A stretch of DNA of 16,505 nucleotides from a virus. The stretch lies in UHGV virus genome UHGV-0075529; one strand, 5' to 3'. Shown here piece by piece: positions 5,744 to 16,505 of this stretch. A program made the position numbers and the translations under genes. Positions within the stretch are counted from its first letter, which is position 1; every line of letters starts with the position of its first letter. The notes beneath the pieces are model-generated. The model worked only from the letters and a program-made list of their open reading frames with translations. It had not been told where the DNA came from and ran no database searches.

Positions 5744-6669
5744 GCGGCAGCCCTCTGCTTGAGGAAACCAAGAGCCTTGACGGCCTCTATCTCAGTGAGA
5801 TCGCCAGACTCCAGAATGTCGCGCTTGAAGATACGGCGGCACAGAGGGAGAAGGTCCTCATCCCATGTTTTGTTCATGGCGATCAGGAGGTCGTTTATCT
5901 CTTTCAGCGTGTCGAGGCTGGCCGGGGTAATATCGCGCTCTGGCTGGCGCTCTGCAGCAAAGTTGATACCCTCCTCGCCCTCAGTGTTGACGTGGTCGAT
6001 AGCGGCATCCAGACGTTCGCGTCGCGGCCAGTATTTGGTTGCCTGCTTCACGACTGTCTTGAGGATCATCTGCTCTTCGTCCGTCACCCATGGACACTTC
6101 TTGCTGCTGTCCTGCTTGTACTTCTTCCAGGCTTCCGAACGGTCACGGATCGCGAAGATATCCGCTATGCGCATGGTATGGGTGAGATAGTCGCCGTCGT
6201 CAGTTTTAACCACGACATACGCCCCAACAATCTCACCGCGCTGCTCTGCGGTGTCGAAGTCGTTGTAGATGTGAATGGGTGGCTTATCTAGCCCCTCACG
6301 GCGGAACTGGTCGTTCTTCCGCACGATTGCAGACTGGCACCACTTAATTGCACCAGATTGCTGGGCGATGTGCATCAACCCCATGTAGCTAATATCGAGG
6401 CAGATAGCACCTTTTCGCGGCACAAGATAAGCAAGTTTCTGCGCCGGGTTCAGCGATATCCCGATTCCTGAAATATTCATCAGGGCGCTACGGGTGCTAG
6501 TCGGGTTGGAGAGAGCGATTTTCGCCAGGTAGTCATTGTTGGCGAAGATCTGCATGGCGAACTCAGATTCGCGCTTGAATTGAATGGACGGTTCGGCGCA
6601 AACCTGCTCGAACTCCGCCTTGAGTGGGTTAATCAGGTTGAATACCTGATCTGTAAGCAGGCCAGCCAT
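5740..6669 (-). CDS. recT: RecT-family single-strand annealing protein
   Basis: 309 aa directly upstream of exo with ATGA coupling; sequence pattern consistent with the RecT family; SD AGGAGGA upstream. Confidence 0.75.
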
Positions 6670-6693
6670 CAGCAGTCCTCCTGTTATTGAAAG

Positions 6694-6978
6694 TTAAAAC
6701 GGGCAGCCGGTGCGGTGTTCCCAGTCGTGCTCTGCCTGGGCGTAGGCCACTGCCGAAACGAAGTCGTTGTATGCCTCGGCAGCTTTATCGCTGCGAAGTC
6801 CTTCGTATGGGCTGGCGTCGATCGGCACGGAGAAGTGGAAGAGACCGGACGGCTCTTTTGGCATCATGTCGATGATTTCCTGCGCCCGGTCGTCGATCCA
6901 CTTCTCTTTCTCGTCGGTGAGCTGCTGCTCAGCCCAGCGTCGATCTTCGATGCGGTCGTAAGTGAGGAATGCGTTCAT
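6694..6978 (-). CDS. gam: Gam-like host-nuclease (RecBCD) inhibitor
   Basis: 94 aa; N-terminus MNAFLTYDRIEDRRWAEQQL resembles lambda GamS [22 protein letters not shown] as recalled; sits just upstream of the annealing protein as in lambda. Confidence 0.55.
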   Translation of the reverse strand: MNAFLTYDRIEDRRWAEQQLTDEKEKWIDDRAQEIIDMMPKEPSGLFHFSVPIDASPYEGLRSDKAAEAYNDFVSAVAYAQAEHDWEHRTGCPF

Positions 6979-6985
6979 GGTTGCC

Positions 6986-7957
6986 TCAGTAATGAATTTT
7001 CGCGCAGGGGATTAGGTCGTCTTTAAGTGCGGTGAGCACTTCGATAGCCTGTTCGCGGGTTAAGCTGGTGTGGCTGGTGAGCGCGTTAACGATGTTGGTG
7101 CCGACCGTCTTGCGGTGCTTCACGTCAGCTTCGCGCTTTGCCTGTTCATCGGCGAGGCGCTTCTCTTCGGCCAGGCGAGCATCTTCGGCCTGTTTTGCCT
7201 TGTGGCGCTCAGCTTCCACTGCCGCAGCTTTTTCTCTTTCCGCCCGGGCTTCTGCTTCCTTCTTCTCGCGTGTCGCACGCTGTTCCGCTTCAATGCGCTG
7301 GCGTTCCGCCAGCTCTGCACGCGCTTTCTCTTCAGCTTCACGGCGCGCTGCGGCTTCAATTTCTGCTTTGTGCTTCGCTTCGGCATCGCGTCGGGCTTGC
7401 TCTGCCGCTTCACTCTTAATGCGCTCTTCATGCTCACGTTGAGCCTGTTCCGCCAGGCGGCGCTGCTCTTCGCGGTCCCGGTCAAAATCCTTATTCATCA
7501 GCAGAGCCATTTCGTGGTCCGCTTCGAACTGAATAGCCCGCTGCAAATCGATGCTCTCGTTCATCACCAGTGCTTCGGCGTGCATCGCGTTCATGGCTTC
7601 TTCAGCCTTAATACGTTCCTGCTCGGCTTCCCATTCGGTAAGTGGGCGCCGTACTTCATCCTTCAGCGCGTCCAGCCTCTCACGCACAATGCGGCGGCTT
7701 TCGTCGATCTGCTTCGGCAGGGCTTTAAGCTCGGCAACCAGATCCTTGCCGGCGTTGTCGATATAGGTTTTGGAGCGGGCAACCTTATGCGCCATGGATG
7801 CGATCGCGTCGCGGCCTTTGCGGGTCGACACATCCGGTACCAGGCTGCGAGCTTCTTTCTCGATCGCCTCAATAATAGGGTCGAGCTGCTCTTTGGTGGT
7901 GAATACCGCCATTGCGTTCTGTTTCTCAATGACGACTAAATCCGTTACTTCGCTCAT
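6986..7957 (-). CDS. Low-complexity coiled-coil protein, 323 aa (Ala/Glu/Arg/Lys-rich centre)
   Basis: Uninterrupted ORF with strong SD (AGGAGA); central ~150 aa is a charged repeat (EAEQRATREKKEAEARAEREKAAAVEAERHKAKQ...) between non-repetitive termini. Confidence 0.7.
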   Translation of the reverse strand: MSEVTDLVVIEKQNAMAVFTTKEQLDPIIEAIEKEARSLVPDVSTRKGRDAIASMAHKVARSKTYIDNAGKDLVAELKALPKQIDESRRIVRERLDALKDEVRRPLTEWEAEQERIKAEEAMNAMHAEALVMNESIDLQRAIQFEADHEMALLMNKDFDRDREEQRRLAEQAQREHEERIKSEAAEQARRDAEAKHKAEIEAAARREAEEKARAELAERQRIEAEQRATREKKEAEARAEREKAAAVEAERHKAKQAEDARLAEEKRLADEQAKREADVKHRKTVGTNIVNALTSHTSLTREQAIEVLTALKDDLIPCAKIHY

Positions 7958-8025
7958 GGTTTCTCCTGAAATTTGGATGTGCAGATGCCGCCCGCATAAG
8001 CCAGGCCGATCGGTTGAATAGGGGG

Positions 8026-8166
8026 TTAGGCTGTTTTTCTATGCCACGGATAACCGATGGCGACCTTCATTTCGTCGTAGGCTGCCATCCACATGGCGCC
8101 ATCACCGATAAACAGGGCAATGGCTGCTTTACTCTGCGCTGCGCGCAGCAGGTGATGATTGATCAT
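8026..8166 (-). CDS. kil: Kil-like small peptide, 46 aa (candidate cell-division inhibitor; not in the ORF track)
   Basis: Hand translation: MINHHLLRAAQSKAAIALFIGDGAMWMAAYDEMKVAIGYPWHRKTA; ATG overlaps the stop of the upstream small ORF; the ALFIGDGAMW segment resembles lambda Kil as I recall it (unverified). Confidence 0.4.
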   Translation of the reverse strand: MINHHLLRAAQSKAAIALFIGDGAMWMAAYDEMKVAIGYPWHRKTA

Positions 8167-9510: not shown

Positions 9511-10188
9511 TTATGGGATGTTTAGTATTTTGGCATCAACCACAACGCCGATGATTTTGCAGTTTCCATTAATTTCTAGCATTGGATATGCGGGGTTAAG
9601 GGGCTTTAGGAAGCGTCTGCCGGCATCGATTACAAGCTTCTTAAAGGTCGCTTCGTTATCGCCTTCTAGCTTCGCGACAACCAGCTTTCCGTTGCGCGGC
9701 TCGACTTCAGGATCAACAAGTATCGCTGCTCCCTCGGGTATGCTCAGTCCAGCCGGGGAGGTCATAGAATCCCCTTTAACGTCCAGCCAGAATGAATCTT
9801 CTGAGCAGTCAACAGTCGTGTCATACCAGCGATCTATCGCTCTTCGGTGATAAGGTTCTACAGCTTCCATCCATTGCCCCGCGCTTACCCAGCTGATTAC
9901 AGGATAACTTCCTTTTGTCTCGTTCAGTCCTCGAAATGCAACGTTCGAAGGTTCTTCACTGGCGTGTAAAACATCCATCCAGCCAAAAGGCAGATCAAGC
10001 GCAGTTTCAATTTTGCGAGCCATCTTATCGCCGATATTGCGATGAGGGTTTGGTCCCAGTAGCTGGCTAAGCGCAGCCGGACTTGTCTCGATGAGCTCGG
10101 CAAACTGCGCTTTGGTCATTCCAGACTCGTGCTGACGCTTCTCGTACAGCGCTTCCAGGTTGGCTTTTCTGATTTCTTTATTTTCCAT
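9511..10188 (-). CDS. cI: cI-type prophage repressor (N-terminal HTH, C-terminal S24 LexA-like autopeptidase)
   Basis: Start taken at ATG 10188 (MENKEIRKANLEA...); C-terminal domain has the catalytic Ser in GDSM, a downstream Lys, and an Ala-Gly candidate cleavage site (SWVSAGQW). The ORF track runs to 10305 across the operators. Confidence 0.88.
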   Translation of the reverse strand: MENKEIRKANLEALYEKRQHESGMTKAQFAELIETSPAALSQLLGPNPHRNIGDKMARKIETALDLPFGWMDVLHASEEPSNVAFRGLNETKGSYPVISWVSAGQWMEAVEPYHRRAIDRWYDTTVDCSEDSFWLDVKGDSMTSPAGLSIPEGAAILVDPEVEPRNGKLVVAKLEGDNEATFKKLVIDAGRRFLKPLNPAYPMLEINGNCKIIGVVVDAKILNIP

Positions 10189-10304
10189 ACCTGCATTGTT
10201 ACTGCTTTTAGCAAAATGATAAATATGCAAATTGCTAAATGATGCTTGCGTAGTATTTAGCATAACGCTAAACTCCAAATCAAACGACTCACCCGGAGAC
10301 ACCA
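10189..10304. promoter_or_regulatory. OR operator triplet with divergent PRM/PR promoters
   Basis: 17-bp sites at 10207-10223 (TTTAGC-AAAAT-GATAAA), 10223-10239 (weak) and 10256-10272 (perfect TTTAGC-ATAAC-GCTAAA); PR candidate -35 TTGCGT (10246-10251), 17-bp spacer, -10 TAAACT (10269-10274). Confidence 0.7.
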
Positions 10305-10538
10305 ATGAGCACTGAACTACACCGCTGGCGCAAGGCCGCCACTACCGACGAATGGGCGCAGCTCGCAAAGTTGGCTAACACGACGCCAGGTTACCTGGAC
10401 CAGATCGCCTACGGAAATCGCCGGGCATCTCCAGAAATGGCATCTGCTATCGAGAAAGGCACGAAGAATTTTCACCGCCAGGCTCCGGTCCTAAAAGAAA
10501 GCCTGGTATTCGCATCGCCGCGTGATACTGCGGCCTAA
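10305..10538 (+). CDS. cro: Cro-like / YdaS-family HTH DNA-binding protein
   Basis: 77-aa ORF divergent from cI across the operator region; SD GGAGA 7 nt upstream; HTH-like segment EWAQLAKLANTTPGYLDQIAYGNR. Confidence 0.65.
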   Translation: MSTELHRWRKAATTDEWAQLAKLANTTPGYLDQIAYGNRRASPEMASAIEKGTKNFHRQAPVLKESLVFASPRDTAA

Positions 10539-14790: not shown

Positions 14791-15587
14791 TGGAACTTTC
14801 ACGGGATAAGATTAAAGAAATAATCAATGACGATTGGCTTTTGATGGATGATTGCGAAGGAAATAAAAACTGTGACGTTGTCAAAGAGATGGCGCGTATA
14901 GCGCTGGCATCGCTCGAAGCGGAGCCTGCCATTCACCGGTGGCGTCGTGTGACCTCTGAGCCATACGGCCCCTATCCTTGGCATTATGGTGATTTTATCG
15001 GCTTCTCAAAGCCCGTTGATGGGATTGAGGATGAGTATTTTTACTCCGCCCCGCCAGAGCCAGCCAATGCCGAAACCGTAGCCTGGCTGTGGTCACACAG
15101 GAAACACCCGAGCGAAGTCACGCTTGTTCGCCCTGAAGATGATGAGAGAGCGGAGGGTGCTCACTGGTCTGGCTGGAGTTGTCAGGCGCTTTATGCAGCA
15201 CCGCCAGTTCCGGTATCTGTGCCCACATTCGAGAAATGGTGTGAGTTGACTGAGCAGAAACCTGTCGGATGGGTGCGTGATGCTATGAAAGAAGCGTATG
15301 ACGGATGCCGCGACGCCATGCTTCAGGGTGCCGAAAAAGCCGAGTCGCCCACCACCATGCAGACCGCGCCAGCCCTAGATTCTTCGCCAAAAATTTCCGA
15401 GTCGCCCGTCAGCAACTCTCCGGTGATTCCGGATGGTTGGGTGCTGGTTCCTAAGGAGCCAACTCCAGAAATGCGTGAGGCGTACCATCAGGCGCAGGAA
15501 GAGTGTGAAGATGGCGGTAGATTATGGAGCCCAGACCACCAATGGAAGGCCATGATCGCAGCAGCACCGCAGCAGGAGGCGAAGTGA
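14790..15587 (+). CDS. Hypothetical phage protein, 265 aa, with an internally repeated motif
   Basis: ATG overlaps the upstream stop (TAATG); internal repeat GWVRDAMKEAYDGCRDAM versus GWVLVPKEPTPEMREAYHQAQ; no catalytic motif recognised. Confidence 0.65.
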   Translation: MELSRDKIKEIINDDWLLMDDCEGNKNCDVVKEMARIALASLEAEPAIHRWRRVTSEPYGPYPWHYGDFIGFSKPVDGIEDEYFYSAPPEPANAETVAWLWSHRKHPSEVTLVRPEDDERAEGAHWSGWSCQALYAAPPVPVSVPTFEKWCELTEQKPVGWVRDAMKEAYDGCRDAMLQGAEKAESPTTMQTAPALDSSPKISESPVSNSPVIPDGWVLVPKEPTPEMREAYHQAQEECEDGGRLWSPDHQWKAMIAAAPQQEAK

Positions 15588-15638
15588 TTATGTCGTGACA
15601 GCATAATTGCGATGTCAACGATAAGCAGAGGTTTGAAA

Positions 15639-15833
15639 ATGAAATCACAATCACCAGTGCAGCATGAAGTTAACATCGACGGCAAAGAGTATGTTGTCAC
15701 AGTAGTCCAAACCGGCAAGTCAACGTGGAGGGCATGGGGAGATTCCTGGGGGCGCCATATAGTCGAAACAGGTTCTAGCGAACATAGCGCGCTTTCTCAT
15801 TGGAAAGCAAAAGCTTTAGTTATGAATGGGTAG
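15639..15833 (+). CDS. Hypothetical phage protein, 64 aa
   Basis: ATG 15639 preceded by SD GAGG (the ORF track starts at 15612); followed by the 15857-15882 terminator. Confidence 0.5.
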   Translation: MKSQSPVQHEVNIDGKEYVVTVVQTGKSTWRAWGDSWGRHIVETGSSEHSALSHWKAKALVMNG

Positions 15834-15856
15834 CGCGGAAACTTTGAAGGTATAAT

Positions 15857-15882
15857 CCCCTCAAATAATCGAGGGGGTTTTT
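15857..15882 (+). terminator. Intrinsic terminator (plus strand) whose 3' stem half doubles as the SD of the next gene
   Basis: Stem CCCCTC (15857-15862) / GAGGGG (15871-15876), loop AAATAATC, then TTTTT (15878-15882) abutting ATG 15883. Confidence 0.6.
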
Positions 15883-16455
15883 ATGTCTGGTTGGGATAAC
15901 GGTATAGATGCAGTTTCTGCGATTGCAGCTATCGCATATGGAAACTCCGTCTATGTAGAATTTGACCGCGAAGCACAATCACTTGATGCAGCTATCGCAT
16001 CTGCGGTAGCAACTTATTTAGCATGGCGATCCTCAGAAGCTAGCAGGGCCACATCCGAAAAAGCTTTGCAGTTGCAAGGAAAGCAGTATTTGTACGAGAC
16101 ATTAAAAGCTTGCGCTGAGAGAGCGAATTCATACTCAAAAGGAAAGAAAGGGGCTGACTGGAGCTTTCATGACGCAGCCAATATTGTTCGATGTTTGAAC
16201 ATGGCAATGGGGAGCATAATAAATTACTCAGATACCAACAATCAGGATGCAATGAAAGGTCTGAAGCAATTCTTTATTAGCCAATTAAACATGGAGCTTT
16301 TTGAAGAGCTCAACTATGAGGTTGGGCCTGATGCCTTCTTTCACGGAGAGGAGCTAACCAGCATGACGAGCGATATTTACTCGCAGTGGTTAAACATTAT
16401 TTCATTCTTTAACCTCATGATTGTCACAGATGATGACCTCGCCGATGAAACATAG
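15883..16455 (+). CDS. Hypothetical protein, 190 aa, in a visibly AT-richer segment (candidate moron / accessory gene)
   Basis: Clean ORF starting right after a terminator; lower GC by eye than the replication genes; acidic C-terminus (TDDDLADET); no motif recognised. Confidence 0.65.
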   Translation: MSGWDNGIDAVSAIAAIAYGNSVYVEFDREAQSLDAAIASAVATYLAWRSSEASRATSEKALQLQGKQYLYETLKACAERANSYSKGKKGADWSFHDAANIVRCLNMAMGSIINYSDTNNQDAMKGLKQFFISQLNMELFEELNYEVGPDAFFHGEELTSMTSDIYSQWLNIISFFNLMIVTDDDLADET

Positions 16456-16505
16456 CTTGATTGATTTTCCATAATCAACCCGCCATAATCATGTCATCGG
16501 AGCCT

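Follow-up and report, generated by a model that had tools for sequence, protein, structure and literature searches.

The 190-aa open reading frame (ORF) at positions 15883–16455 of the virus genome UHGV-0075529 (plus strand; ATG at 15883, stop codon ending at 16455) is very probably an accessory gene and a member of phrog_1779, an uncharacterized family of Enterobacterales lambdoid prophages. It lies close to the end of the 16,505-nt stretch of DNA analyzed here (the window), which holds the integrase and early regions of a lambdoid prophage (integrase, RecT, S24 repressor, DnaB-type helicase and an Ead/Ea22-like gene). The family is already known but uncharacterized, and the window copy is a singular chimeric allele of it. 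The best overall explanation, given a probability of about 0.5, is that the ORF forms an AT-rich accessory cassette that encodes a putative membrane protein and carries its own expression signal, and that this prophage holds a chimeric allele of the cassette. A preliminary description, made from the sequence of the window, had presented the ORF as a candidate moron of no recognized family; the boundaries it gave for the ORF agree with the sequence and with the ORF list.

Family membership and accessory status

Membership in phrog_1779 is indicated by a near full-length profile match (E = 3.2e-73), in which aa 25–188 of the ORF align with positions 3–169 of the 169 profile positions. The 169-aa E. 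coli form, represented by WP_000017329.1, lies between the same flanks, behind the same hairpin and ahead of the same downstream junction; within the family, the 21 extra residues that split a hydrophobic segment occur in the window allele alone. In a large protein collection, 34 clusters of homologues (90% identity) were found, all from Enterobacterales and all unnamed or labeled hypothetical. Their lengths range from 109 to 184 aa, mostly 163–173 aa (n = 34), and the family alignment contains 32 invariant columns. An exhaustive HMMER profile search of 1.84 billion representatives returned only 40 clusters, all belonging to this same family. No significant family match was obtained in Pfam, NCBIfam, PADLOC or PDB sequence searches with either the ORF or the family profile, and ten distant family members had no Pfam domain. 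The 169-aa form is named DUF4760 in UniRef; this name was rejected because the Pfam model matches none of the 32 members scanned and none of the 10 distant relatives.

Every family member starts with a 19–20-residue Ala/Ser-rich hydrophobic stretch followed by basic residues, and the best 19-residue Kyte–Doolittle mean is 1.5–2.4 in all 31 relatives. An N-terminal membrane anchor is therefore predicted, and is likely. AlphaFold2 models are all-helical, with a predicted local distance difference test (pLDDT) score of 75–90 in the core, and no fold match was found for the all-helical model. We infer a bitopic inner-membrane protein with a short acidic N-terminal tail, one Ala/Ser-rich transmembrane helix and an all-helical domain of ~140 aa. 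Because basic residues follow the helix, the positive-inside rule suggests that the helical domain faces the cytoplasm.

Comparison of complete genomes supports the view that the gene is accessory and sporadically present at a variable site. A near-identical gene occurs in 26 of 5426 complete E. coli genomes and diverged relatives occur in ~175 more (about 201 in total), as against 2972 of the 5426 for the adjacent ylcH–ybcN nin module. In most loci, the family gene sits between replication genes and either ylcH–ybcN/NinB or a holE-like gene with DUF1367, which places it mostly at the boundary of the replication and nin genes. The same site holds PD-lambda-1, rha and a 44%-identical family member in PhiR26_1, and emrE, a large hypothetical gene and an alpha/beta hydrolase in Lambda_4C10. 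The preliminary description had left room for a conserved nin-region protein. Models of NinB, NinE, NinF, NinG, NinH, RusA, YbcN and YbcO matched neither the ORF (E <= 1) nor any of 32 family members (E <= 10), a result that, with the difference in frequency from the adjacent module, supports the ORF not being a core nin gene.

The base composition of the gene sets it apart from much of the window. With a GC content of 0.433 and a GC content at third codon positions (GC3) of 0.440, the ORF is the lowest among 17 ORFs examined, and only 0.7% of 573-nt segments are as low or lower (window mean 0.525). The gene had been described as AT-richer than both the replication and the immunity genes. The contrast is clear against the replication genes and weaker against the immunity genes, because the repressor gene (9511–10305; Peptidase_S24 plus helix-turn-helix) is itself fairly AT-rich (GC 0.477, GC3 0.472). 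Low GC is also found throughout the family: the mean is 0.415 versus 0.51 in the flanks, 28 of 31 distinct alleles are lower in GC than both of their 3-kb flanks, and the difference holds down to 37% protein identity. Since low GC is kept in diverged relatives, it is a property of the family and not evidence of recent acquisition by this phage. This pattern marks a long-lived AT-rich cargo gene rather than a recent gain.

A terminator-like element that accompanies the gene

The ORF is immediately preceded by an intrinsic-terminator-like hairpin (15854–15882, plus strand) composed of AATCCCCTC, an 8-nt loop and GAGGGGGTT with a T-run, and identified by a terminator scan, RNAfold and conservation. 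A −10-like hexamer, TATAAT (15851–15856, plus strand), abuts it. The core of the hairpin pairs CCCCTC (15857–15862) with GAGGGG (15871–15876) across the loop, and GTTTTT then reaches the ATG; in the terminator scan the stem has 9 pairs (15854–15879). Because the ATG directly adjoins the T-run, GAGGGGG in the 3′ arm (15871–15877) is the sole possible Shine–Dalgarno sequence (SD). The preliminary description had noted the hexamer, a terminator at 15857–15882 and the role of its 3′ arm as the only SD, and these observations stand. The hairpin folds with −15.4 kcal/mol and a modest z score of −1.8 (RNAfold), and the window contains 6 terminator-like matches versus 3.2 ± 1.5 expected, so that one match alone is not rare. 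The hairpin is nevertheless above chance because it is conserved upstream of diverged homologues.

The element is kept in 16 sequence variants from Escherichia, Enterobacter, Phytobacter, Kluyvera and IMG/VR prophages, always in the order (TGATG)TATAAT or TATACT, stem, a variable loop of 5–9 nt, return stem and T-run. Every variant folds, with energies from −8 to −21 kcal/mol. Stem pairs were read for each variant from RNAfold, and the MAFFT alignment, in which the 3′ arms were misregistered, was not used for counting pairs. Compensatory changes convert AAT/ATT to ACT/AGT and CCCCTC/GAGGGG to CCCTTC/GAAGGG, the stem of locus L012 has an additional G–C pair, and U–G/U–A alternations occur in several variants. 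Both double changes fall in one clade, and independent compensatory events are thus few. The element stands directly before the gene even where the upstream genes differ: a 64-aa ORF precedes it in the window, a 57-aa ORF in L008, and others in L011, L012, L014, L029 and L030. The clades of L003, L033, L037 and L054 have different hairpins with T-runs at the same place. As judged from these loci, the hairpin, its T-run and the TATAAT move as a cassette with the gene. The GC-rich stem-loop, the U-tract and the compensatory changes are the features expected of a Rho-independent terminator, and the hairpin is probably a functional terminator linked to the gene. An in-frame ATG inside TGATGTATAAT, which would give extended proteins of 178–179 aa in some loci, was rejected as the true start because the length of the loop, and hence the frame, varies.

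A possible start of transcription inside the hairpin

All 15 aligned variants share the residues T-A-T-A-x-T, even where the TAT lies outside the stem, a constancy that points to a role other than pairing and would suit a −10 element. On this basis, a promoter that starts inside the hairpin can be proposed tentatively. The hairpin would stop or attenuate transcripts from pR unless they are antiterminated, and in the E. coli clade it would also hide the SD in read-through RNA. A weak promoter with the conserved −10 would initiate ~7 nt past the hexamer, inside the hairpin, and its transcripts would lack the 5′ arm and so leave the SD free. Under these conditions, low-level expression in the lysogen would come mainly from the gene's own signal.

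Several observations weigh against this explanation. Neither an acceptable −35 nor a TGn accompanies the TATAAT at 15851–15856, which went uncalled in the promoter scan. The hexamer partly pairs with the U-tract, so its conservation could reflect the A-tract of a terminator. About half of the variants have a separate GGAG/AGGAG SD after the T-run; masking of the SD by the 3′ arm is thus specific to the E. coli/Enterobacter clade, which includes the window. The Serratia copies of the family gene belong to the early-left operon, close to xis/int, where the upstream region differs and the TATAAT–CCCCTC type of hairpin is missing. As for the protein and the allele, the transmembrane call comes from hydropathy alone and the N-terminus has a pLDDT below 50, while the allele with the insert was seen once, at ~10x coverage, and we infer the impairment of its anchor.

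The main rival is a timing terminator of the tR2 type, with the ORF as an ordinary delayed-early lytic gene. In lambda, tR2 lies between ren and ninB. The hairpin would accordingly be a terminator at the nin entrance that makes the nin genes and Q dependent on antitermination by N, and the ORF, as the first gene behind it, would serve a purpose internal to the phage. The hairpin resembles tR2-type nin terminators, which are read through by N, in type and in its place in the pR operon at the replication/nin boundary; in most loci, the gene shares the orientation and position of the pR operon, from the replication genes to ybcN/ninB/holE-like genes. With no terminator behind the gene, transcription runs on into the nin genes, and a −10 without a −35 fits this reading too. 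However, the hairpin is linked to one sporadic gene (26–201 genomes) and not to the much commoner nin module (2972), and it is missing from phages with other cargo at the site. Low GC and a patchy distribution are typical of cargo rather than of a regulatory core, and the −10 residues are invariant outside the stem. A delayed-early role is thus rather unlikely, and a cassette with its own signal is preferred.

A 63-bp patch from a phage-plasmid gene

The window allele is set apart by a 63-bp in-frame insert (15924–15986 or, equivalently, 15938–16000; plus strand) that encodes aa 15–35, was missed in the preliminary description and is missing from every relative. The 21 residues are absent from all 34 homologues, and the locus in 25 complete E. 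coli genomes is 99.7–100% identical apart from lacking the 63 bp. A 14-nt direct repeat, TGCAGCTATCGCAT, flanks the insert (15924–15937 and 15987–16000). The 75-nt stretch at 15933–16007 (plus strand) is 100% identical to a gene of the phage-plasmid Cyrano (OV696614) annotated as a putative antitoxin HicB and matching PDC-M06B, and in a three-way alignment the window allele equals the 169-aa form plus a copy of the Cyrano type. At the left junction the two share 5 nt (CGCAT), at the right one 21 nt (TGCAGCTATCGCATCTGCGGT). Such a combination of left microhomology and right homology fits a template switch or short-patch recombination, and the source of the patch was evidently a PDC-M06B/HicB-like gene in a phage-plasmid of the SSU5-like type. 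The donor gene, CYRAN_50, matches PDC-M06B at 1e-32 and its 74-aa neighbor matches PDC-M06A at 1e-19. The annotated HicA/HicB pair of Cyrano (L002, 51112–51960), which matches PDC-M06 A and B, matches no Pfam HicA or HicB model.

The resemblance of the window protein to PDC-M06, a PADLOC candidate system (A plus B, annotated HicA/HicB in Cyrano), is restricted to this patch of 75 nt (25 aa). The rest of the protein is unrelated, full-length similarity to HicB/PDC-M06B is lacking, no PDC-M06A partner is adjacent and the upstream 64-aa ORF has no match. Both the PADLOC match of the window protein to PDC-M06B (E = 0.019, aa 13–43) and its match to phrog_2620 arise from the patch only.

The predicted N-terminal membrane-anchor segment (15904–16026, plus strand; Kyte–Doolittle) is split in two by the insert. 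At 190 aa, with a 21-aa insert that breaks the hydrophobic segment, the window copy departs from the length and uninterrupted anchor of phrog_1779 and is therefore an aberrant allele of the family. Its best 19-residue hydropathy is 1.22, a fall from about 1.74. Because the patch splits the anchor segment, the copy is probably impaired, although with less assurance than the anchor itself is predicted.

The exact 190-aa protein is found on a single metagenome contig, NODE_191 of ENA ERZ773123 (95,463 bp, coverage 9.7), and the possibility that the insert is an assembly or sequencing artifact, the real gene being the ordinary 169-aa form, has to be weighed. The contig name is of the SPAdes style, the insert lies ~0.6 kb from the contig end, and the chimeric junction was not found in IMG/VR, JGI metagenomes or the 5426 complete E. 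coli genomes. In addition, the homology on the right spans exactly 21 nt, a length often used as the smallest k-mer. Conversely, the left junction shares only 5 nt, an overlap so short that joining across it in a de Bruijn graph should be hard or impossible. The insert also keeps the reading frame exactly and has a clean 14-nt direct repeat at its borders, which is what a template switch would be expected to leave. The donor-type stretch, moreover, is common in E. coli plasmids (110 plasmid matches among the complete genomes). An artifact is thus improbable, and a natural chimera is preferred.

Relation to morons and exclusion proteins

In lambdoid phages, a moron (the concept of Juhala and Hendrix) is an additional gene of deviant base composition, equipped with a promoter and a terminator of its own, that has entered between genes found side by side in relatives. 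The ORF is like a moron in its low GC, its sporadic presence at a variable site and a transcription signal that moves with the gene. It is unlike one in that the terminator is upstream rather than downstream and the promoter is represented only by a −10-like hexamer. Because no terminator follows the gene, only half of the promoter–gene–terminator layout is present. Of the earlier proposal of a moron with self-contained signals, what holds is the accessory status, the low GC and the gene-linked terminator; the promoter is a candidate, and a downstream terminator is absent.

That proposal had also named exclusion, abortive infection or anti-defense as possible functions. Homology gives no support for these: the family proper, represented by P0001, P0011 and P0021, had no match in PADLOC-DB 2.0. 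Small membrane-anchored exclusion proteins of prophages include HK97 gp15, P22 SieA/SieB and lambda RexB. Like them, the ORF is an accessory gene for a small prophage protein with a predicted anchor, but no similarity to any of them was detected in sequence or fold. The most likely role, though a guess with the odds against it, is one at the membrane that benefits the lysogen, for instance in superinfection exclusion or abortive infection.

Still more doubtful is a functional, self-contained exclusion, abortive-infection or anti-defense moron that is active in this very prophage. Such a moron would agree with an AT-rich accessory gene in a cargo site that holds PD-lambda-1 elsewhere, with the gene-linked terminator and −10 and with a membrane-anchor architecture found in many exclusion proteins. 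The family proper has no PADLOC match, however, and the weak PDC-M06B match of this allele comes from the 21-aa patch. The anchor of this allele is split, with the fall in hydropathy given above, and a literature search gave no phenotype data: WP_000017329 did not appear, DUF4760 was mentioned once in passing, and a paper on lambdoid Chi contained nothing of relevance. A further proposal, and an improbable one, is that the family forms a new single-gene membrane-acting exclusion or abortive-infection module of lambdoid prophages, made up of a −10 fused to a terminator hairpin and a bitopic all-helical protein. Its overlapping terminator and promoter would make it ignore operon transcription and allow expression only from the start inside the hairpin, and the window allele would be a natural chimera that acquired a fragment of a candidate defense antitoxin.

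If the family does act in exclusion or abortive infection, it would add a small single-gene system to the replication/nin cargo site of lambdoid prophages, which already hosts PD-lambda-1 and emrE. The fusion of a terminator to a −10 would illustrate, in compact form, the insulation of cargo from phage operons, and the 63-bp patch would be a clean natural example of microhomology-mediated short-patch transfer from a phage-plasmid to a prophage. As it stands, the ORF is an ordinary hypothetical accessory gene with an odd allele that is flagged here, and the CCATAATCA repeat behind it is reassigned to the known ylcH–ybcN leader. Nothing in this would greatly surprise a specialist, and the conserved terminator/−10 cassette and the short-patch chimera are modestly interesting.

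The downstream junction and the next module

The last 50 nt of the window (16456–16505, plus strand) are the first 50 nt of a conserved junction before ylcH(orf33)–ybcN, as seen in relatives and in the phage 82 record X92588. They correspond to the start of the orf33(ylcH)–orf151(ybcN)–rusA leader of phage 82 and DLP12. This leader is not part of the ORF's cassette, since ~190 nt after the stop are highly conserved both beside family genes that are 44–100% identical and beside many different other upstream cargos. Within the window, the junction comprises a −35-like TTGATT (16461–16466), a −10-like CATAAT (16484–16489) and, from 16494, the 5′ arm of a conserved hairpin, all on the plus strand. 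The repeat CCATAATCA, noted earlier as a duplication after the stop, does occur twice (16469–16477 and 16483–16491); it belongs, though, to the next module. The phage 82 record annotates TTGATT as a putative −35, CATAAT as a putative −10, a "possible regulator-binding site" and orf33, and its −10 falls inside the second CCATAATCA copy, within the putative orf33 promoter.

Across the whole junction (window 16456–16505, continued in L001 at 18794–18990), the two hexamers are spaced TTGATT-17-CATAAT. In the hairpin, the loop CCTGAACAA is conserved and the stem covaries, with CGGAG/CTCCG here, GTGG/CCAC in L008 and CTGTCGG/CCGACAG in L012. A second hairpin overlaps the start of ylcH. The junction folds well (z = −5.4), and neither it nor the hairpin upstream of the gene matches an Rfam family. 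A 33-aa ylcH-like ORF (M..SQMQKCTCDFLHSA..GG; L001, 18883–18984, also L003, L008 and L028) is conserved as a protein, and its overlap with the start of the following gene (ybcN, NinB or others) suggests translational coupling. In a full-length relative, the interval from the stop of the family gene to ylcH is free of terminator-like sites, the first of which falls within ylcH. The source contig runs on for 92 nt past the stop codon, and near-identical prophages continue with the 33-aa ylcH-like ORF, ybcN, ninE, ybcO, rusA, ylcG and quuD (Q). A partner gene beyond the window end, which had been considered, is accordingly not expected.

Upstream ORF and other settings

An uncharacterized ORF of 64 aa (15639–15833, plus strand) lies upstream of the cassette, with an SD, AGAGG, at 15627–15631; the mechanically called ORF starts at 15612. 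It has 6 homologue clusters, all hypothetical and without a family match. In E. coli it always occurs together with the phrog_1779 gene, in 25 complete genomes, in none of which PGAP annotates it. Most other family members lack it upstream, so it does not qualify as a conserved partner. A role as a HicA/HicB-like partner was rejected: neither its 64-aa nor its 73-aa form has a PDC-M06A, PADLOC or Pfam match, and it is missing at most family loci. In L029 and L030, a homologue of a 265-aa ORF ends directly at GTGATGTATAAT and the hairpin. In the window (compared at 15560–15600), a module of ~260 nt with the 64-aa ORF is instead intercalated where those loci go straight to the hairpin, which suggests stepwise accretion of small cassettes at this boundary.

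In the Serratia prophages L004–L007 (5668–5886), the family gene follows a ParB-like helix-turn-helix gene and a 72-aa ParE_like gene (PF24732) and precedes an Rv2179c-like exonuclease gene, xis and int. The 72-aa gene was considered as a counterpart of the 64-aa ORF, and their sequences are unrelated. The most diverged member (37% identity), in L053 (IMG/VR 2823378697_000008, 6540–8117), lies ~1 kb upstream of a cloacin/colicin-type bacteriocin gene with Cloacin and Cytotoxic domains, a setting unlike the lambdoid nin boundary.

Elsewhere in the window, a 323-aa ORF on the minus strand (6986–7957) lies between the RecT/GamL and kil-like genes. It has no Pfam match, and its central region is highly charged, rich in E, A, R and K, and coiled-coil-like. 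This ORF accounts for the extreme AT skew (−0.5) and the high GC content at first codon positions (0.70) at 6986–7957.

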